Translations under genes and position numbers: made by a program | DNA from: a virus | UHGV virus genome: UHGV-1300782 | Direction: 5' to 3' (one strand) | DNA length: 12,558 bases | Shown: one piece after another, positions 167 to 12,470 of the stretch | How the letters are laid out: each line of letters opens with the position of its first letter | Position numbering within the stretch: position 1 is the stretch's first letter | Notes under the pieces: generated by a model | Told to the model about the DNA's origin: nothing | The model's input: only the letters and a program-made list of their open reading frames with translations | Databases searched by the model: none

Positions 167-243
167 TTACCGTTGAGGTAATAATTATGCTTATTTGGTT
201 TGGTGTCAATAGATATGAGTTAAAAAAATTACCCGTAAGGTAA
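167..243 (-). promoter_or_regulatory. PL-like leftward early promoter bracketed by two operator palindromes
   Basis: Read on the minus strand: -35 TTGACA (plus 204-209), 17-nt spacer, -10 AATTAT (plus 181-186). Perfect palindromes TTACC-GTTGA-GGTAA at 167-181 (abutting the -10, over the start site) and TTACC-CGTAA-GGTAA at 229-243 (20 bp upstream of the -35). Operator centres are 62 bp apart. Confidence 0.6.
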
Positions 244-300: not shown

Positions 301-885
301 TTATTGTTTGCTTTTTTCGTTCTGGTTGATGACAAATTCAATGTAACTTTCGATCTTTGCTTTCTCGGTTTCGGGTAACAATGCGTAGCGCGAGCGGTCA
401 TAGTTGATGGTCGCAGGGTCGTGCGGGTGAATCAGTAATTCATAGCCGTGACGCCCGAATGCGGATGCCACATTCTCCAGGGTGGAAATGGAAACGCTAA
501 CCTCATTGTTTAACAGGCGGCTGATTGTCACCTGGGCGACGCCGGATGCGCGGTGAAGTTTTCCCTGTGTTGAAAGGTCGCGGCTTTCGCTCATCCAGCG
601 TTCCAGGTTGTGAGCCGCCAGCTGACCAATGTCGCTTGGGCCGACAGGCTGAAAACCTTCCTGAGAAAGCGAGCGATCGATATCAAGCCAGTTACGGGGT
701 TTATTGGCGGCAGCTTCAATTTTTCGCGCAACCTGGTCGCCGATAACCTTCTTGCCAAGAGCCCAGCGGTTTACCAGATTTGCCTGAGTTCCAAGTTTTT
801 CTGCCATCCGCGTCTGAACACCATTGAATTCACGGTCGATCAAGTCGTTGAGATTTTGCCTGCGGACGTCCTGGATACTTTTCAT
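301..885 (-). CDS. Prophage immunity repressor, tandem helix-turn-helix, no recognisable S24 autopeptidase domain
   Basis: 194-codon ORF divergent from the cro-like gene, with operator palindromes on both sides. N-terminal segment QTRMAEKLGTQANLVNRWALGKK and C-terminal segment SGVAQVTISRLLNNEVSVSISTLENVASAFG both read as HTH units. No Ala-Gly cleavage site or Ser/Lys dyad motif seen. Own terminator at 251-280. No SD before the ATG. Confidence 0.7.
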   Translation of the reverse strand: MKSIQDVRRQNLNDLIDREFNGVQTRMAEKLGTQANLVNRWALGKKVIGDQVARKIEAAANKPRNWLDIDRSLSQEGFQPVGPSDIGQLAAHNLERWMSESRDLSTQGKLHRASGVAQVTISRLLNNEVSVSISTLENVASAFGRHGYELLIHPHDPATINYDRSRYALLPETEKAKIESYIEFVINQNEKSKQ

Positions 886-3259: not shown

Positions 3260-3270
3260 ACGTCTCGATG

Positions 3271-3348
3271 ATTACCTTCTAGGTAATAAAATATTCTAAA
3301 ATCTATTGATTTCGTGTCTTATGTGGTTTTTAATTACCTCAGAGGTAA
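3271..3348 (+). promoter_or_regulatory. Second promoter-operator cassette, rightward, in front of the accessory gene block
   Basis: ATTACC-TTCTA-GGTAAT (3271-3287), -35 TTGATT (3306-3311), 17-nt spacer, -10 TTTAAT (3329-3334), then TTACC-TCAGA-GGTAA (3334-3348) abutting the -10. Operator centres are 62 bp apart, as at PL. The right half-site GAGGT also serves as the SD for the ATG at 3352. Confidence 0.6.
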
Positions 3349-3351
3349 ATC

Positions 3352-3696
3352 ATGAGAAAACAGATACAGGCTCTTGGTCGACTCAAAACAGGCCAGATGA
3401 ACAAAACAGAATCTGCGTATTGCCAGCACCTTGAGCAGCGTAAACGTGCAGGGGAAATCGCCTGGTATCGATTCGAGGGTATCAAGCTGCGGTTAGCTGA
3501 CAACACGTTCTATACGCCCGATTTTGCTGTGATGCTCGCCACCGGCGAGATGGAACTGCACGAAGTGAAAGGTTTCTGGACCGACGACGCCAGAGTGAAA
3601 ACCAAAGTCGCCGCAGATCAGTATCCGTTCCGAATCATCGGGGTAACGGTTAAACCAAAGAAAGCAGGTGGTGGCTGGAACATCGAAGAGTTCTGA
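3352..3696 (+). CDS. DUF1064-like protein with a PD-(D/E)xK nuclease-type motif
   Basis: 114 codons; GAGGT 4 nt before the ATG. Segment YTPDFAVMLATGEMELHEVKG fits PD ... E-x-K spacing. The DUF1064 family assignment is from memory. Confidence 0.6.
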   Translation: MRKQIQALGRLKTGQMNKTESAYCQHLEQRKRAGEIAWYRFEGIKLRLADNTFYTPDFAVMLATGEMELHEVKGFWTDDARVKTKVAADQYPFRIIGVTVKPKKAGGGWNIEEF

Positions 3697-6390: not shown

Positions 6391-6664
6391 CCTGCAACTT
6401 GCCGTCAAAGGTGAATACTTCGATGCCATGATTCGCGGAGATAAAACGGAAGAGTATCGCCTGTGTAATGACTACTGGGAAAAGCGAATTATGTTCCGGG
6501 AATATGACCGCCTGATTATCACAAAGGGATATCCGAAGCGTGACGATTCCAGCCGCAGAATTGACGTTCCGTATGGCGGCTATGAAATCAAGACAATCAC
6601 ACATCCGCACTTCGGCGATAAACCGGTAAAGGTATACGCGATAAAGGTAAATATTGATGGCTAA
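6383..6664 (+). CDS. ASCH/PUA-like small protein (tentative)
   Basis: AGGAGG (6371-6376) 6 nt before GTG 6383, overlapping the upstream stop. N-terminus LAVKGEYFDAMIRGDKTEEYRL matches the ASCH-type pattern (I..I.....GKKT.E.R). Confidence 0.5.
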   Translation: MANLQLAVKGEYFDAMIRGDKTEEYRLCNDYWEKRIMFREYDRLIITKGYPKRDDSSRRIDVPYGGYEIKTITHPHFGDKPVKVYAIKVNIDG

Positions 6665-6995
6665 ATCAGCAGCAGAGCGCAAAGCCGCTCAGAGAGCCAG
6701 ACAAGCTGCATCTGGTGTACGTAAGCTGGAGATTGTGCTTGATGCTCAGGAAATTGAAATGCTGGAGCGTAACTGTGCCACACGTCGCCCCGGGCGTGCG
6801 CCTTACGAATTTGGTGAGTATATAGCGTTACTGATCCGCCAGGATGATGCACGCGTGCGCGGGCGTATAAAATCGATCAGCAGAAAACGTTGCGGTAAGT
6901 GCGGCGAGAGAGTTCCTGTGAATTCATGCCCGTGTAATGGTGACTCGCAATGCTGGGTAACCAAAGGCTGGCATGAAACGAAATTAATAGTGTGA
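6657..6995 (+). CDS. Basic protein with a C-terminal Cys cluster (CGKCGERVPVNSCPC), candidate zinc-binding regulator
   Basis: AAGGT 8 nt before ATG 6657; basic helical N-terminus AERKAAQRARQAASGVRKLEIVL; Cys cluster C-x2-C-x9-C-x-C. Last gene before the terminase operon. Function inferred from composition only. Confidence 0.5.
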   Translation: MAKSAAERKAAQRARQAASGVRKLEIVLDAQEIEMLERNCATRRPGRAPYEFGEYIALLIRQDDARVRGRIKSISRKRCGKCGERVPVNSCPCNGDSQCWVTKGWHETKLIV

Positions 6996-7012: not shown

Positions 7013-7225
7013 ATGCCAAAAATACGCTACGACCTTGAAGATATGAGAGATAACTCAGCAAATTTTCCGAAAGAGGTTAAATTTCTCATGCATAAGTATG
7101 GTTGCGCCAGGAGGGATATAGTTATCGACAGTCAGCACCCTTGCGGCGAGGATGTAATTTTCATTCGCGGTAAATGGGAAGGGTATCTTGACGAGAGTTT
7201 TTACGATGAATTTGATGGACTTTGA
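7013..7225 (+). CDS. Hypothetical small protein (70 aa)
   Basis: ATG 7013 preceded by GAAGGTG; the ORF track's GTG at 6992 is in frame and cannot be excluded. Stop at 7223-7225 is followed by a terminator. Confidence 0.5.
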   Translation: MPKIRYDLEDMRDNSANFPKEVKFLMHKYGCARRDIVIDSQHPCGEDVIFIRGKWEGYLDESFYDEFDGL

Positions 7226-7230
7226 ATACT

Positions 7231-7257
7231 GCCGCCAACTATGGCGGCTTTATTTTG
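7231..7257 (+). terminator. Intrinsic terminator between accessory block and terminase genes
   Basis: Hairpin GCCGCCA-acta-TGGCGGC (7231-7248) followed by TTTATTTTG (7249-7257). Confidence 0.7.
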
Positions 7258-7260
7258 CAT

Positions 7261-7292
7261 GGTACTATTACCACAACGGTAACTATTACCAC
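7261..7292. repeat. Direct repeat GGTA(A)CTATTACCAC x2 upstream of terS
   Basis: Exact 10-mer CTATTACCAC at 7265-7274 and 7283-7292. Each copy forms an inverted-order palindrome of the operator half-sites (GGTA-CTAT-TACC at 7261-7272; GGTAA-CTA-TTACC at 7278-7290). Confidence 0.65.
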
Positions 7293-7302
7293 GGTGGTTA
7301 TG

Positions 7303-7896
7303 ATGCCTGCTGAACCTAAAACCTATAAACGCAAATCAACGCAATTTAAGCCACTAACAGCAATGCAGGAGGCTTATTGCCAGTCATACATCAAAACGCC
7401 TGAAAACCAGACTCAGGCAGCGATTAACGCAGGATTCTCCCCAAATACAGCGGCAGTTAAAGCCAGTGTCATGATGCGCGATGAACGCATTCAAAAACGG
7501 ATTGCCGAGCTGATGGAAGAGCGCAACAAACGAATGCGCGTCAGTGCTGATTACGTTCTCATGCGCCTGGTGGAGATCGACCAGATGGACGTGATCGACA
7601 TCCTCAACGACGATGGGAGCCTTAAGCCAATCCGCGAGTGGCCGAAAATCTGGCGCACTACGCTTAGCGGCTTTGATCTGTCATCGACCATCATGAACAT
7701 GAACGAGGATTCGATAGAGACAATCCTCAAAAAAATTAAATGGCCTGACAAGGTGAAGAACCTCGAACTGATTGGTAAGCACGTCGACGTCAACGCATTC
7801 AAAGAACGCCTGGATGTTAATGTGAATGTGACAATTGCTGATCGCATAGCAGCAGCCAGGAAGCGACTCAAAGAACGTCAGGATGGTAATCAGTGA
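7303..7896 (+). CDS. terS: Terminase small subunit (Terminase_2-type)
   Basis: Segment LTAMQEAYCQSYIKTPENQTQAAINAGFSPNTAAVKASVMMRDERIQKRIAELM matches the small-terminase pattern (LT..QE.FC.EY ... QAAI.AGYS). Start placed at ATG 7303 (or 7300) after GGTGG; the TTG 7222 extension in the ORF track reads through the terminator and repeats. Stop overlaps the terL start (GTGA). Confidence 0.7.
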   Translation: MPAEPKTYKRKSTQFKPLTAMQEAYCQSYIKTPENQTQAAINAGFSPNTAAVKASVMMRDERIQKRIAELMEERNKRMRVSADYVLMRLVEIDQMDVIDILNDDGSLKPIREWPKIWRTTLSGFDLSSTIMNMNEDSIETILKKIKWPDKVKNLELIGKHVDVNAFKERLDVNVNVTIADRIAAARKRLKERQDGNQ

Positions 7897-9368
7897 CAGA
7901 TACAGCGTTATCTCCTGAAGAGCAGTTGATCGAGGATATTGCAGGGTTCACTCACGATCCGCTTGGCTATGCTCTCTATGCGTTCCCGTGGGGGGAAGAG
8001 GGGACTGAACTGGCACATGCTACCGGCCCACGTCAATGGCAGGCTGATGCGTTCCGAGAGATACGTGATCACCTGCAGAATCCAGAGACGCGCTATCAGC
8101 CGCTTATGCTGGCACGCGCTTCTGGTCACGGTATTGGTAAATCCGCATTTATCTCAATGCTGATCAACTGGGGCATGTCCACTTGCGAGGATTGTAAGGT
8201 CGTGGTGACCGCCAACACCGACAACCAGCTACGAACGAAGACCTGGCCGGAAATTATCAAGTGGTCAAACCTTGCTATCACGAAAGACTGGTTTACCTGT
8301 ACCGCTACCGCGATGTACAGCAATGACCCTGGGCACGACAAGCGGTGGCGAGCTGACGCAATCCCCTGGTCTGAGCACAACACTGAGGCATTCGCCGGAC
8401 TACACAACGAGCGCAAACGCATCATCGTGGTATTCGATGAAGCGTCGAATATTGCCGATCTTGTGTGGGAGGTAGCAGAGGGTGCGCTGACGGACGAAGA
8501 CACCGAAATCATCTGGGTGGCGTTCGGGAACCCGACGCGTAACACCGGGCGTTTCCGTGAATGTTTCCGCAAGTACAAACACCGCTGGAAGTGTGCGCAG
8601 ATTGACAGCCGGACGGTGGAAGGCACTAACAAACAGCAGTTGCAGAAATGGGTTGATGACTACGGGGAAGACAGCGACTTCGTTAAAATCCGTGTGCGCG
8701 GCATATTCCCTGATGCATCTGAATTGCAGTTTATCCCTACCGGTCTTACTGATGAGGCAATGAAACGGGTGGTAACCGCTGCGCAGGTTGCACATGCTCC
8801 GGTGATAATCGGCGTTGACCCGGCATACTCAGGCGTTGATGACGCGGTGATATACCTGCGGCAGGGGCTGCACAGTAAGGTGCTGTGGACTGGCAACAAG
8901 ACTACTGACGATCTGATTATGGCGAAGCGTATCGCTGACTTTGAAGACCAGTACCAGGCTGACGCAGTGTTCATCGACTTCGGTTACGGAACTGGTCTGA
9001 AGTCAATCGGTGACGGCTGGGGTCGTACATGGCAACTTGTTCCGTTCGGTGGCGCGTCTACTGACCCGCAGATGCTCAATAAGCGCGGGGAGATGTTCAA
9101 CTCATGCAAGACATGGCTGAGGCTGGGCGGCATGCTGGATGACCAGGAAACAGCGGACGACCTGTCGGCGGCAGAGTACAAAGTTCGAGTGGACGGTAAA
9201 ATCGTTATCGAACCGAAGGAAGATATCAAGGAGCGGCTTGGGCGCTCGCCGGGTAAAGGCGATGCGCTACTGCTGACGTTTGCTTTCCCTGTGTCGAAGC
9301 GTCTGCGAATTCCCGGGCAGCAGAACCAGCAAGGCAAGGCCATCACAGATTACGATCCCTATGATTAA
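7893..9368 (+). CDS. terL: Terminase large subunit
   Basis: 491 codons; AGGATGG 6 nt before GTG 7893. Walker A-like ARASGHGIGKSAF, Walker B-like IIVVFDEAS, acidic nuclease-type motif VIIGVDPAYSGVDDAV. Size and position after terS fit. Confidence 0.85.
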   Translation: MTDTALSPEEQLIEDIAGFTHDPLGYALYAFPWGEEGTELAHATGPRQWQADAFREIRDHLQNPETRYQPLMLARASGHGIGKSAFISMLINWGMSTCEDCKVVVTANTDNQLRTKTWPEIIKWSNLAITKDWFTCTATAMYSNDPGHDKRWRADAIPWSEHNTEAFAGLHNERKRIIVVFDEASNIADLVWEVAEGALTDEDTEIIWVAFGNPTRNTGRFRECFRKYKHRWKCAQIDSRTVEGTNKQQLQKWVDDYGEDSDFVKIRVRGIFPDASELQFIPTGLTDEAMKRVVTAAQVAHAPVIIGVDPAYSGVDDAVIYLRQGLHSKVLWTGNKTTDDLIMAKRIADFEDQYQADAVFIDFGYGTGLKSIGDGWGRTWQLVPFGGASTDPQMLNKRGEMFNSCKTWLRLGGMLDDQETADDLSAAEYKVRVDGKIVIEPKEDIKERLGRSPGKGDALLLTFAFPVSKRLRIPGQQNQQGKAITDYDPYD

Positions 9369-9418
9369 TCCGCTGGTGGGGATAATGTCGTTGATATCCT
9401 CTGATGAGGATAAAACAA

Positions 9419-9445
9419 AGCCAGCTCATCGGCTGGCTGTTTGTG
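9419..9445. terminator. Bidirectional terminator between convergent terL and the reverse-strand gene
   Basis: Hairpin AGCCAGC-tcatcg-GCTGGCT (9419-9438) with TGTTTGTG downstream on the plus strand and an A-run upstream (T-rich on the minus strand). Confidence 0.5.
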
Positions 9446-9455
9446 ACATGTCACA
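9442..9455. repeat. Palindrome TGTGACATGTCACA, copy 2
   Basis: Perfect 14-bp palindrome; the 13-mer is identical to 6991-7003. Sits between the terL stop and the reverse-strand gene. Confidence 0.7.
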
Positions 9456-9458
9456 GAG

Positions 9459-9866
9459 CTAGAAAATAATTTCATCAAATGCAGCATTTATTGCCTTTGC
9501 TTCGCTAATGGCGCCTTGTTTATCGACAATAGCTTTTTTACCAAGCACCTCGGCAAGGCACTGTAGCTTCATGTTGTATAAGTGTTCGCTCATGTAATCA
9601 TTATCACTTTTTGCTTTAGCGCAAACAGAGCGAGAAATATCAAACACATCGCCTTTTTCCATTTCAGAACGTTGTGCTGTTATCCAGTCATGGAACGTAA
9701 CGCTAGTACCATGGTCTTCTCTAAGAGTTAACCCGGTCAGCCCCTCACTCTGAATTACTTCGTAATGCATTTCATTACCAGCAAAAACGCCATAAAAAAT
9801 GCAGTCTTCAGCCTGAACGATACGAGAATATTTTAATGGCCATTCATTTAGATACTTAGCCAACAT
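9459..9866 (-). CDS. Hypothetical protein (135 aa), reverse-oriented AT-rich insert gene (moron candidate)
   Basis: Minus-strand ORF. Start placed at ATG 9866-9864 (MLAKYLNEWPLKY...) because the longer TTG-initiated version (9929) translates the upstream terminator hairpin. No good SD. My hand count over 9461-9640 gives about 37-42% GC against about 48% in a terL sample (8401-8460). No predicted membrane segment by eye; no family recognised. Confidence 0.5.
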   Translation of the reverse strand: MLAKYLNEWPLKYSRIVQAEDCIFYGVFAGNEMHYEVIQSEGLTGLTLREDHGTSVTFHDWITAQRSEMEKGDVFDISRSVCAKAKSDNDYMSEHLYNMKLQCLAEVLGKKAIVDKQGAISEAKAINAAFDEIIF

Positions 9867-9891
9867 ATCAATTGTCTTGATAATCTCACCT

Positions 9892-9916
9892 AAAAAAAAT
9901 GCCCGGCGAACCGGGC
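9892..9916 (-). terminator. Strong intrinsic terminator immediately upstream of the reverse-strand gene
   Basis: Minus strand reads GCCCGG-TTCG-CCGGGC-A-TTTTTTTT (plus 9916 down to 9892): 6-bp GC stem, UUCG tetraloop, U8 tract. Ends about 25 nt before the ATG at 9866. Confidence 0.75.
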
Positions 9917-9993
9917 GAACTGGAAGCAATGAGTTATGCCTTCCGTGGCTGTACTGGTTTACAGCATGAAGTCATCGCAATGGCGTCCTGCTG

Positions 9994-10036
9994 TAAAAAG
10001 GGCGGTGATAGTCCTTCAAGGGAAACCATCACCGCC
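9994..10036 (-). terminator. Candidate terminator of the tRNA
   Basis: On the minus strand a 9-bp stem GGCGGTGAT / ATCACCGCC (plus 10036-10028 and 10009-10001) around an 18-nt loop, followed by C-TTTTT-A; about 44 nt after the tRNA 3' end. Confidence 0.45.
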
Positions 10037-10080
10037 AAGCCCCCTGGAACTTCTGGCATCACGGTCCTTAGGCGTGATTC

Positions 10081-10157
10081 TGGCGTGGCATGCAGGATTC
10101 GAACCTGCGACCAACCGCTTAGAAGGCGGTTGCTCTGTCCAGCTGAGCTAATGCCAC
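10081..10157 (-). tRNA. tRNA-Arg (anticodon UCU)
   Basis: The reverse complement folds by hand into a 77-nt cloverleaf: acceptor GTGGCAT/ATGCCAC, D-stem GCTC/GAGC, anticodon stem ACCGC/GCGGT with loop CTTCTAA (anticodon TCT), variable loop TGGTC, T-arm GCAGG-TTCGAAT-CCTGC, discriminator G, encoded CCA. Confidence 0.85.
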
Positions 10158-10479
10158 AACGCTGAGAGCACTTAGCCTGTTAAGGCGCCACACTTTGTCG
10201 CGGCTCCATAAATGCTCTCATCGTTGTACCCTCGTCTCTTCCGAGGTGTCACACCGAATCGCCTGGATGGTGAATCCCCGTGCGCGGAATAAAACCGCTC
10301 GACTTGCACATTCCGGCTACCTGGTTCGTTTGCCCGAGCAAGGGAGGGTGCCCCTTAAACGTATCCAGACCGCTATCGGCGCATGTGCCATACGCCGTAC
10401 TGCTCAAAATAAAAGCTCACTCCACCTGTTCAATTTAACGACAAGCCAGTCAGGTTAGTAACCGGAATGAACTCTTTGG

Positions 10480-10523
10480 TTACCTGAAAGGTAATAATTC
10501 GTGCGTTAAATGTCAACTGTCTA
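10480..10523 (-). promoter_or_regulatory. Third promoter-operator cassette, leftward, feeding the tRNA/insert unit
   Basis: Minus strand reads TAGACA-G-TTGACA ... AATTAT-TACC-TTTCA-GGTAAC. Operator TTACC-N5-GGTAA at plus 10480-10494 abuts a -10-like AATTAT (plus 10494-10499) exactly as at PL. -35 candidates are TAGACA (plus 10518-10523, 18-nt spacer) or TTGACA (plus 10511-10516, spacer too short). A lone GGTAA half-site sits at 10552-10556, where a second operator 62 bp away would lie. Confidence 0.45.
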
Positions 10524-10584
10524 CGATAAATAAATCATATGTGGTTAAATTGGTAATAATTTAATTGCGTACGGAGTCATTGAT

Positions 10585-10791
10585 ATGTGCATGGGTAGCT
10601 CACCATCAGTGCCTGCAACACCAGAAGTTCAGGCAGCACCACAGGAGCAGGATGCCGCCGTTGTTGATGCCCGCGACGAAGAAACTCGTCGCCGTCGCGC
10701 TGCTGCTGGTCGTAGTTCTACGCTGCTTACCGGTTCTCAGGGCGACACATCAACCGCTAATACCAGCGGTAAAACGCTGCTTGGTCAGTAA
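10585..10791 (+). CDS. Hypothetical small protein (68 aa), low-complexity and Arg-rich, upstream of portal
   Basis: GGAG (10573-10576) 8 nt before ATG 10585. Codon choice (CGT/CGC, GGT, CTG, ACC) looks like expressed enterobacterial genes. The overlapping TTG-initiated frame at 10565 has no SD and was not called. Confidence 0.55.
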   Translation: MCMGSSPSVPATPEVQAAPQEQDAAVVDARDEETRRRRAAAGRSSTLLTGSQGDTSTANTSGKTLLGQ

Positions 10792-10805
10792 CCGGAGTCA
10801 TTGAA

Positions 10806-12470
10806 ATGGCGGAAACAACTAAAGAGCGATTGAACAAACAGTTCGCACAACTTGAAAGCGAGCGTCAGTCGTTCGAGCCGCACTGGCGCGAGTTGAGTGA
10901 TTACATCAACCCGCGTGGTTCCCGCTTTCTGACTTCTGAGGTCAACCGTAACGATCGACGCAATACACGCATTATTGATTCGACCGGGACTATGGCGGCG
11001 CGCACTCTCGCCAGCGGCATGATGTCAGGCATCACAAGCCCCGCGCGTCCGTGGTTTCGCCTGGCTACGCCAGATCCTGAAATGATGGATTATGGCCCTG
11101 TTAAGTTGTGGCTTGAGGCGGTGCAGAACCGCATGAACGATATGTTCAATAAGTCGAATCTCTATCAGTCGCTGCCGCAGTTATACGGAAGCCTCGGCAC
11201 ATACAGCACTGGTGCAATGGCAGTGCTGGAGGATGACGAGGACATCATTCGCACAATGCCATTCCCGATAGGAAGTTACTACCTGGCTAACTCACCTCGT
11301 GGCAGTGTGGACACCTGTTTTCGCAAGTTCTCTATGACTGTTCGTCAGCTTGTTCAGGAGTTCGGGCTAAATAACGTCAGCGAATCCGTAAAAAGCATGT
11401 GGGAAAGCGGCACCTACGAGAAGTGGATTGAAGTGATGCATTCGGTTTACCCGAACATTGACCGCGATACATCGAAGCTGGATAGCAAGAACAAGCCATT
11501 CAAATCGGTTTATTACGAGGTTGGTGGCGATAACGACAAGTTGTTGCGTGAGTCCGGATTCGATGAGTTTCCAATTATGGCTCCGCGCTGGGAAGTTAAC
11601 GGCGAAGATGTTTATGGATCATCATGCCCGGGTATGCTGGCGCTTGGACCTGTTAAGGCATTGCAGCTTCTCCAGAAGCGCAAGTCGCAGTTGATTGATA
11701 AAGCCACCAATCCGCCGATGGTTGCTCCGACTTCCCTCAAGAATCAGCGCGCCTCCCTTCTTCCTGGCGACATCACGTATATCGATCAGATTACTGGTCA
11801 TGATGGTTTCAGGCCTGCTTATCTGGTTAACCCCAGTACAGCAGATTTGGTGGCAGACATTCAGGACACTCGTCAAATCATTAACAGCGCCTACTTTGTC
11901 GATCTGTTCATGATGTTGCAGAACATCAATACCCGCTCGATGCCTGTTGAAGCGGTGATCGAAATGAAAGAAGAAAAACTTCTGATGTTGGGGCCGGTTC
12001 TGGAGCGTCTGAACGACGAATGTCTTAATCCTCTCATTGACCGCGCTTTCTCGATGATGGTGCGTAAAAACATGCTGCCGCCACCGCCTGACGCGATGGA
12101 AGGTATGCCCCTGAAGGTCGAATACATTTCCGTCATGGCTCAGGCGCAGAAGTCTATCGGCCTGTCCAGTCTGGCGTCTACGGTCAACTTCATTGGTCAA
12201 CTTGCGCAAGCGAAACCAGAAGCTCTCGACAAACTCAACGTTGATCAGGCGATCGATGCATTCGCTGATATGTCCGGAGTGTCTCCAACCGTCATTGTTC
12301 CGCAGGAACAGGTTGAGCAGGCTCGCCAGCAACGGGCACAGCAACAACAGCAGCAACAAATGATGGAGATGGGGATGGCGGCGGCACAGGGTGCCAAGAC
12401 GCTAAGCGAAGCTAAAACTTCGGATCCGAGTGTTTTGTCAGCTATGGCGAATGCAGTTAGTGGTCGCTGA
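10806..12470 (+). CDS. Portal (head-to-tail connector) protein, T7-type family
   Basis: 554 codons; GGAG 9 nt before ATG 10806. N-terminal pattern (ERQSFEPHWRELSDYINP ... ARPWFRLATP) and the Gln/Met-rich C-terminus (QQQQQQQMMEMGMAAAQGA) parallel the T7 gp8 connector as I recall it. Confidence 0.8.
   Translation: MAETTKERLNKQFAQLESERQSFEPHWRELSDYINPRGSRFLTSEVNRNDRRNTRIIDSTGTMAARTLASGMMSGITSPARPWFRLATPDPEMMDYGPVKLWLEAVQNRMNDMFNKSNLYQSLPQLYGSLGTYSTGAMAVLEDDEDIIRTMPFPIGSYYLANSPRGSVDTCFRKFSMTVRQLVQEFGLNNVSESVKSMWESGTYEKWIEVMHSVYPNIDRDTSKLDSKNKPFKSVYYEVGGDNDKLLRESGFDEFPIMAPRWEVNGEDVYGSSCPGMLALGPVKALQLLQKRKSQLIDKATNPPMVAPTSLKNQRASLLPGDITYIDQITGHDGFRPAYLVNPSTADLVADIQDTRQIINSAYFVDLFMMLQNINTRSMPVEAVIEMKEEKLLMLGPVLERLNDECLNPLIDRAFSMMVRKNMLPPPPDAMEGMPLKVEYISVMAQAQKSIGLSSLASTVNFIGQLAQAKPEALDKLNVDQAIDAFADMSGVSPTVIVPQEQVEQARQQRAQQQQQQQMMEMGMAAAQGAKTLSEAKTSDPSVLSAMANAVSGR
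12262..12356 (+). repeat. Direct repeat, copy 1 (inside portal coding sequence)
   Basis: 95 bp, 94/95 identical to 12464-12558 (offset 202 bp); the single mismatch is C at 12301 versus T at 12503. Confidence 0.85.

Follow-up and report, generated by a model that had tools for sequence, protein, structure and literature searches.

The closest described counterparts of the locus considered here come from the phages epsilon15, phiV10 and SPC32H. In the epsilon15 RefSeq record (NC_004775.2), a set of palindromic sites carries the protein_bind label 'repressor'; these sites lie at OL, before terS, before the tail-fibre gene, before the gene that follows the replication genes and, at 2931–2947, upstream of the gp3-like gene. 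For SPC32H, the repressor (Rep; structures PDB 5d50 and 5d4z) is described as a tetramer that binds palindromes (PMC9638917); the repressors of phiV10 and epsilon15 have a reported homology of only 42% (PMC9782041). We analysed a stretch of 12,558 nucleotides (nt) of virus genome UHGV-1300782 (hereafter, the window) and focused on a palindrome of this type at position 10480 (TTACCTGAAAGGTAA), which lies between a leftward unit, consisting of a structured RNA, a tRNA-Arg and a variable insert gene, and the rightward gp3-like and portal genes (Table 1). The epsilon15 site at 2931–2947 is the homologue of this palindrome, with the same position upstream of the gp3-like gene and the same half-sites (TTACCTAAAAGGTAA); unlike in our analysis, the epsilon15 record gives the site no promoter or direction, and it shows an IHF site on the left of the palindrome, in DNA that the window lacks. 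SPC32H has the same operator and downstream block at the locus (approximately 80% identity). We read the site, with moderate confidence, as a Rep operator in a back-to-back divergent promoter region that would serve the leftward 'moron' unit on one side and a rightward head-gene operon on the other.

Sequence comparison of positions 9300–11000 of the window gave 98.6% identity to Escherichia phage HEMP4 and 98% identity to phiV10 over three quarters of the length; Salmonella phages SPN1S, SPC32H and epsilon15, Enterobacter phage Tyrion and Klebsiella prophages matched more weakly. Owing to these matches to HEMP4, phiV10 and the epsilon15 group, the window is assigned by sequence to Uetakevirus, that is, to the temperate podophages of the epsilon15/phiV10 type. 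Its repressor gene encodes a full-length phmmer match to SPC32H Rep, the structure of which is known (E = 3.5e-42; PDB 5d50).

The site at 10480 is a perfect TTACC-N5-GGTAA palindrome. Seven perfect and two one-mismatch copies of this motif were present in the window, against 0.22 expected, and they were distributed over five loci, at positions 167 and 229, 941 and 989, 3272 and 3334, 7268 and 7286, and 10480. The members of the 167/229 and 3272/3334 pairs are each 62 bp apart; the former pair flanks the PL promoter, and the 941/989 operators lie between rep and the cro-like gene. In the complete genomes of phiV10 and of one epsilon15-like phage, the same palindrome was found at OL and OR and, in both, before every rightward unit (terS, gp3/portal, tail-fibre, lysis, int and the gene after the replication genes). 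By these sequence criteria, the 10480 site is a genuine operator of the epsilon15/SPC32H-type repressor family, and its binding by Rep would be expected from annotation, position and the homology to SPC32H. Since the operator is already on record in epsilon15, this core finding is incremental. The half-sites were the same in all relatives, despite the reported divergence of the phiV10 and epsilon15 repressors.

The interval from the operator to the gp3 start codon could be aligned without gaps in ten annotated relatives, comprising phages of E. coli, Salmonella, Enterobacter and Klebsiella. Within it, a 23-mer (TGGTTAAATTGGTAATAATTTAA) was identical in these ten phages, with divergent flanks, and this conservation was seen before the 23-mer was used as a search key. 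Exact matches to the 23-mer were then used to fetch further loci, more than 120 from IMG/VR and 8 from species-representative genomes (Superficieibacter, Citrobacter, Klebsiella, Erwinia, Pseudocitrobacter, Scandinavium and Pseudescherichia). The retrieved set contained 98 distinct sequences in 20 clusters, originating from phages and prophages of at least eight Enterobacterales genera according to record titles. The operator half-sites were invariant among the 98 sequences, and no indel occurred between the operator and the 23-mer in any of them; the 62-bp distance is fixed. Among the 20 cluster representatives, TTACC and GGTAAT were invariant, and the following 16 bases drifted freely. Next came [T/G]GTCAA, corresponding to TTGAC(A) on the minus strand, with the TTG and the C invariant, followed by four variable bases, CTACG and an A/T-rich stretch; the block from TAT(G/A)TGG through the 23-mer was nearly invariant.

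This pattern bears on a leftward promoter. Across the 98 distinct relatives, the minus-strand TTGAC(A) stood exactly 17 bp from TACC(Y)T, the candidate -10 element in the operator. The T at -12 and the A at -11 of TACCTT are operator bases, and the T at -7 corresponds to operator spacer position N4, which was A on the plus strand in all 20 clusters, whereas at the other phiV10 and epsilon15 operators it varied (A, G, C or T). TTGACA-17-TACCTT has the A at -11 and the T at -7, and its spacer falls within 16–18 bp. A conserved -35 element at a fixed distance of 17 bp, a spacer that drifts and an additional constraint at -7 are, as far as sequence can tell, the usual signature of a promoter, and the predicted start lies near 10481, at an A on the minus strand. 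As both the -10 element and this start are inside the operator, bound Rep would be expected to cover the two together. Apart from weak hits at 10432, no further promoter-like site with at least 8/12 matches was present on the minus strand between the tRNA and the operator. In some relatives, the conserved hairpin of the leftward RNA is separated from the operator by 10–29 nt (10 nt at three loci), in the Klebsiella phages a long-range stem abuts the operator, and in several relatives the conserved structure begins 0–30 nt from it, so near that no other promoter fits in some of them. Taken together with the minus-strand RNA structure, the leftward tRNA and the terminators described below, a leftward start at or in the operator is the best reading of these sequences, and the 10480 operator very probably controls a leftward promoter that makes the structured RNA plus tRNA-Arg. 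The plus-strand sigma-70 candidates that we considered (ATGTCA-17-AATCAT, an extended -10 TGgTTAAAT, and AATAAT with upstream hexamers) were rejected owing to an unconserved -35 or -10 element or the lack of an A at -11.

The proposed arrangement is comparable to lambda-type PL and PR, in which a palindromic operator lies over the sigma-70 -10/+1 region, a second operator position is located upstream of the -35 element, and repression acts by occlusion. It differs in that the lambda-type operators form a tandem array of adjacent sites, whereas one full operator with a partner half-site is present here and the operator pairs of the window are 62 bp apart. The window repressor is also unrelated to that of lambda, being an antirepressor-controlled tetramer.

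The stretch of approximately 600 bp that separates the operator from the insert gene is non-coding and conserved in blocks across host genera, with variable insertions between them; the leader blocks retained across host genera are 10211–10321 and 10363–10442. A leader of ~320 nt had been proposed for this region in an initial annotation of the window, made from the sequence alone; the stretch exists, but it is better described as a conserved structured RNA, which is also found in relatives without the tRNA. In all relatives examined, including those that lack the tRNA, the leftward RNA takes up the interval that extends from the operator to the insert gene (9901–10479). In the conserved hairpin at 10377–10397, 97.5% of cells were paired over 22 distinct variants; one position was G-C in 13 variants and A-U in 9, and two more positions were doubly changed in one variant. 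The hairpin contained one invariant U·G pair and 13 further G·U cells, all of which become C·A or A·C on the plus strand. The consensus fold of the operator-proximal block (~10360–10480) had a free energy of -29.8 kcal/mol on the minus strand vs -17.0 kcal/mol on the plus strand, whereas the block at 10211–10321 folded equally on both (-16.7 and -17.3 kcal/mol, respectively). As the two blocks other than the operator-proximal one gave consensus folds without a minus-strand preference, the strand of the RNA is assigned from the hairpin, the terminators and the tRNA. A search of the window and five relatives against Rfam 15 (E <= 1) found only the tRNA, with no family for the leader; a DicF hit was below threshold (22 bits vs the 48-bit cut-off) and not credible.

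The tRNA-Arg(UCU) was present in 59 of the 110 distinct relatives, leftward each time, and epsilon15 has no tRNA at this operator-leader locus. When tRNA or tRNA-like genes were sought in the tRNA-less relatives with introns allowed and at low thresholds, only inconsistent low-score calls were obtained. Tyrion, BUCT554 and the Klebsiella phages carry other inserts of 150–400 nt at the tRNA position between the same conserved flanks. The opening sequence of some of these inserts is reminiscent of the acceptor and D-arm of a tRNA (GUGGUGAAUGCGCAGGCUGAUGCGC ... CACCAC); ARAGORN called no convincing tRNA there.

The tRNA is separated from the insert gene by two intrinsic terminators, T1 and T2. 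T1 was found in 93 and T2 in 100 of the 110 distinct relatives, with compensatory changes in the T1 stem and a compensatory GCCCAC/GUGGGC pair in T2 of the Salmonella phages; the U-tracts of both are on the minus strand only. The T2 U-tract runs straight into the ribosome-binding site of the insert gene (AGGUGAG), and therefore every insert-gene transcript must cross T2. The initial annotation had the operator promoter reading through into the insert gene, which is doubtful, since two strong and conserved minus-strand terminators stand in between and T1 would have to be crossed as well. Simple read-through is unlikely to be efficient, and expression of the insert gene would need leakage or antitermination of some kind. 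The cargo gene changes, whereas leader, terminators and ribosome-binding site remain constant: the cargo is a PHROG 4846 gene in the window, a Sf6 gp66/DUF2829-like gene in phiV10, epsilon15, BUCT554 and a Klebsiella prophage, and others elsewhere. Pfam, NCBIfam and PADLOC returned no function for the insert gene of the window.

Two further observations concern this segment. On the minus strand, the ribosome-binding site AGGTGAG of the insert gene is followed at a normal distance by an in-frame ATC at 9881, where the PHROG 4846 alignment begins; the first ATG is at 9866, 15 nt further on, and the gene may have a non-canonical start or a shortened N-terminus. In addition, a LexA-box-like CTGT-N8-ACAG motif (CTGTACTGGTTTACAG) lies at 9949–9964, between T1 and T2 and upstream of the insert gene. 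It is the sole match in the window, with at least one match in 32 of 200 shuffles, and it is kept in place in 45 of the 110 relatives as one of three near-identical versions.

Table 1. Features of the window, with positions, strand and basis of assignment.
Feature	Position	Strand	Basis or remarks
Rep-type operator TTACCTGAAAGGTAA	10480-10494		Extended form GTTACC-N5-GGTAAT at 10479-10495; motif enrichment, conservation
Proposed -35, TTGACA	10511-10516	-	TTGACA in 16/20 cluster representatives, constant offset from operator
Proposed -10, TACCTT, inside operator	10488-10493	-	17 bp from TTGACA, 9/12 match
AATTAT of initial annotation, with TAGACA (10523-10518), 18-bp spacer	10494-10499	-	Promoter scan, 9/12
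Conserved structured RNA ('leader') between operator and tRNA	10158-10479	-	Block conservation, folds
Conserved hairpin 5'-CGGCGUAUG GCA CAUGCGCCG	10377-10397	-	Covariation
tRNA-Arg, anticodon UCU, optional insert in leftward unit	10081-10157	-	ARAGORN; Rfam 71.7 bits
Intrinsic terminator T1	10001-10036	-	14-bp stem then CUUUUUAC, five-base U-tract; -22.8 kcal/mol
Intrinsic terminator T2	9901-9916	-	GCCCGG-UUCG-CCGGGC then U8; -12.7 kcal/mol
Insert (variable cargo) gene, PHROG 4846	9459-9929	-	Leftward unit with tRNA-Arg
Near-palindromic box AATCATATGTGGTT, consensus ~AACCATATATGGTT	10533-10546	+	Motif scan
Invariant 23-mer TGGTTAAATTGGTAATAATTTAA	10542-10564	+	Holds GGTAA (10552-10556) and -10-like TAATAAT (10554-10560)
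Epsilon15 gp3-like gene, 68 aa, first gene rightward	10585-10791	+	Open reading frame list, PHROG 831, phiV10/epsilon15 annotations
Portal gene	10806-12470	+	Next after gp3-like gene
PL region	167-243	-	Operators 167-181 and 229-243 around TTGACA (209-204)-17-AATTAT (186-181), 10/12 promoter match
Repressor gene (Rep), presumed operator binder	301-885	-	Pfam HTH_3; phmmer to SPC32H Rep
cro-like gene	1040		
terS and terL	terL end 9368		

The initial annotation had taken the site for a third copy of the PL promoter-operator cassette. The local resemblance is real: the minus strand from 10499 to 10479 reads AATTATTACCTTTCAGGTAAC and matches the PL core AATTATTACCTCAACGGTAAC (minus strand, 186 to 166) at 17 of 21 positions, and the 21-mer occurred at three places in the window with at most four mismatches (PL, 10499 and the site before terS), against 0.01 expected from Markov-resampled windows. 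The likeness ends, however, at the operator plus five flanking bases, and 11 of the 17 matching bases belong to the operator consensus. Over the 47 bp that separate the operator positions, 13 positions agreed with PL and 14 with the 3272–3348 cassette, which is the chance level, and global alignment to the PL cassette scored 10.5, against a shuffle maximum of 12.5. Comparison of 10470–10566 with PL and with the 3262–3358 cassette, in both orientations, revealed no homology past the operator. Because the inter-operator DNA is alike only by chance, the sequence at 10480 is one more operator, at one of five operator-bearing loci, and not a duplicated cassette. A TTGACA does occur upstream, as in PL, on the minus strand from 10516 to 10511, but it is 11 bp from AATTAT instead of the 17 bp of PL; with this unworkable spacer and an unconserved hexamer, AATTAT fails as a -10 element. 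Its position is occupied by AGATAT or GATATT in epsilon15 and SPN1S and by AATAAT in Tyrion, with TAGGCC, TAGTGT and the like at the -35 position, and the TAGACA-18-AATTAT match is specific to the E. coli lineage. The proposal of an operator-controlled leftward promoter is favoured by the comparative data, but with a different -10 element and a start near 10481 rather than 10487. As an analogy, the PL-like layout holds, in that the operator would lie at +1, with TTGACA upstream of it and a further position of interest 62 bp away.

That position is the GGTAA half-site at 10552–10556, which is indeed present, 62 bp from the GGTAA at 10490–10494 and at the same distance as true operator pairs. 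It lies in the invariant block and, instead of being a lone operator half-site, is more likely part of a rightward late promoter. The box upstream of it had two copies in the window within two mismatches of AACCATATATGGTT (10533–10546 and 1346–1359), against 0.03 expected; further copies were located at 20918 and 24736 in phiV10 and at 19937 and 24748 in epsilon15. At the lysis genes of phiV10 and epsilon15, the box is followed after 7 nt by TATAAT (TATGAT in epsilon15), and at the tail-fibre gene, again after 7 nt, by TAATAG; at both, a Rep operator is located 29–41 bp further upstream. At the portal locus, TAATAA(T) occupies the equivalent hexamer at 10554–10560, followed by GGAG at 10573 and the ATG of the gp3-like gene at 10585. 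The same order of box, 7 nt and -10-like hexamer thus precedes the portal, tail-fibre and lysis genes, although a good -10 element is found only at the lysis copy. We consider 10533–10564 to be probably a -35-less, activator-dependent late promoter for the gp3-like and portal genes, in which the box may be the site of a late activator; this reading of the sequence is less secure than that of the leftward promoter. The box palindrome is of the form ACC-N6-GGT and so unlike the ACC-N5-GGT of the Rep operator; besides its copies at the portal, tail-fibre and lysis genes, it occurs immediately past the cro terminator.

Late promoters of phage P1 consist of a -10 element and a short inverted repeat near -22, without a -35 element, and are served by the activator Lpa. 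The rightward element is similar in lacking a -35 element and in combining a -10-like hexamer with a palindromic box centred ~26 bp before the presumed start, and its design recurs before three late gene blocks. The box sequence differs from that of P1, and no Lpa homologue or other activator was identified for it; the likeness to P1 is one of resemblance only.

Combining these elements, we propose that Rep (301–885) binds 10480–10494 and that a leftward sigma-70 promoter, composed of TTGACA (10516–10511), 17 bp and TACCTT (10493–10488), has its -10 element and its start (~10481) inside the operator. Rep bound there would stand directly in the way of RNA polymerase, and the leftward promoter would fire only with Rep absent or inactivated. 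The transcript would be the conserved structured RNA carrying tRNA-Arg(UCU), ending mostly at T1 and T2, and the cargo gene behind T2 would receive only the transcription that passes the terminators. In the rightward direction, 10533–10564 (box, 7 nt, TAATAAT) would act as a late promoter with the design of the tail-fibre and lysis elements. The GGTAA half-site may be merely part of its -10 region or may offer the Rep tetramer a weak second contact, because its distance of 62 bp from the operator is that of the true pairs and SPC32H Rep is tetrameric (PMC9638917).

Several points weigh against this proposal. TACCTT is a weak -10 element, which shares only 3 of 6 positions with TATAAT and falls under the standard promoter-scan threshold. 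The A at N4 could reflect an A-tract preference of Rep, as N3 is also nearly invariant, and GTCAA...CTACG, which has two mismatches to WATCAANNNNTTR, could be an IHF-like site or a site for another protein. An IHF site is the less likely assignment for this stretch; one of its two conserved mismatches is a base that fits the -35 element. The rightward element has an imperfect -10 and no recognisable -35 element, and it needs an activator or may be no promoter. The operator sequence itself is assigned from annotation and position. Because the fetched loci were selected by exact match to the 23-mer, they are an independent test only of the DNA to its left and are uninformative on variation of the 23-mer. 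Many of the relatives are close kin, leaving approximately 6–20 effective independent lineages. Finally, a literature search yielded no start-site, transcript, footprint or reporter data for this phage group, the primary papers on epsilon15 and SPC32H being outside its reach.

An alternative that we regard as possible but unlikely is that the operator serves the rightward structural operon only, with Rep sitting ~70 bp upstream of the late promoter and bridging to the half-site, perhaps over a bend at GTCAA...CTACG; the leftward RNA and tRNA would then start from another, unrecognised signal. Single operators do lie at comparable distances upstream of the tail-fibre and lysis elements of phiV10 and epsilon15, the homology between the window and epsilon15 starts exactly at the operator and extends rightward, the distance of 62 bp to the half-site is invariant, and SPC32H Rep acts as a tetramer (PMC9638917). 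The tail-fibre and lysis operators, however, have no minus-strand TTGACA at the equivalent offset, so this hexamer is specific to the 10480 locus, which is also the one with a leftward RNA abutting the operator. The invariant G in the plus-strand TGTCAA fits the -35 consensus and misfits the IHF consensus, and the distances from operator to -10 element at the three late elements, 67, 55 and 58 bp, are therefore not in helical phase.

Still less probable is the model of the initial annotation, in which a duplicated PL cassette with AATTAT as its -10 element starts transcription near 10487, reads through to the insert gene and places that gene under the same regulation as the early genes. The 17/21 match to the PL core includes the TAATT flank, TAGACA-18-AATTAT is a 9/12 promoter match in the phage lineage of the window, and any insert-gene transcript has to cross T2 anyway. 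Nevertheless, the homology is confined to the operator and its flank, a spacer of 11 bp separates TTGACA from AATTAT, neither AATTAT nor TAGACA is conserved in epsilon15, SPN1S, Tyrion or the Klebsiella phages, and two strong conserved terminators stand ahead of the insert gene. A purely architectural role, in which a lone Rep site without a promoter in either direction acts in long-range looping or as a repressor sink, appears very improbable. Such a role would agree with a tetrameric Rep and with the many dispersed sites in the genome, but promoter-like elements are conserved at fixed spacing on both sides of the operator, and transcription units begin on both sides within ~100 bp. The divergent arrangement with a repressed leftward promoter is the reading that we retain.

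The window as a whole spans the immunity region through to the late genes, with replication genes and a set of small genes after the cro-like gene; a p55-like regulator is encoded at 6654–6995. Before terS, within 7231–7303, the plus strand contains a terminator-like hairpin (GCCGCC...GGCGGC) followed by TTTATTTT and then by two direct operator-like 18-bp repeats, CTATTACCACAACGGTAA and CTATTACCACGGTGGTTA, which end 2 nt before the ATG at 7303. Since a start at 7222 (TTG), the mechanical open reading frame start that is also used in the phiV10 annotation, would take in the hairpin, 7303 is the likelier start of terS. On the minus strand at 1987–2030, inside the open reading frame at 1637–2452, the 20-mer TGGGATCATTCAACATCCCG, with TTTTTGGG behind it, is present as two tandem copies spaced by 24 bp; these copies could be iterons or origin repeats. 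In phiV10, a perfect SOS box (CTGTATAAATACACAG) was observed at ~20810–20835, between p24 and the tail-fibre gene, just upstream of the leftward p24 and beside a Rep operator, in a region that the window does not cover. SPC32H reportedly has a LexA-controlled antirepressor, with which the phiV10 box near p24 fits.

For the biology of these phages, the results speak against plain read-through from the 10480 promoter as the way in which the insert gene is transcribed. The leader RNA with tandem terminators before a swappable cargo gene, absent from Rfam, is the more interesting by-product. We suggest, as a tentative idea that may well prove wrong, that the operator-controlled leftward promoter drives an undescribed, genus-wide structured RNA of ~300–600 nt, an 'expression platform' that hosts an optional tRNA-Arg and gates swappable cargo through the two terminators. 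If so, the RNA would do this as a cis-acting antiterminator, like the HK022 put RNAs, or as a processing scaffold, and expression of the cargo, including the DUF2829/Sf6 gp66-like genes, would be limited to certain conditions soon after infection or induction. For engineers of phiV10- or SPC32H-type reporter phages, the analysis provides precise coordinates. In the preferred reading, the lysogeny repressor of a widespread group of enterobacterial prophages would directly control one more transcription unit, made up of a structured RNA and a rare-codon tRNA-Arg(UCU), and transcription of the head-gene operon may restart from a promoter of its own beside the operator.

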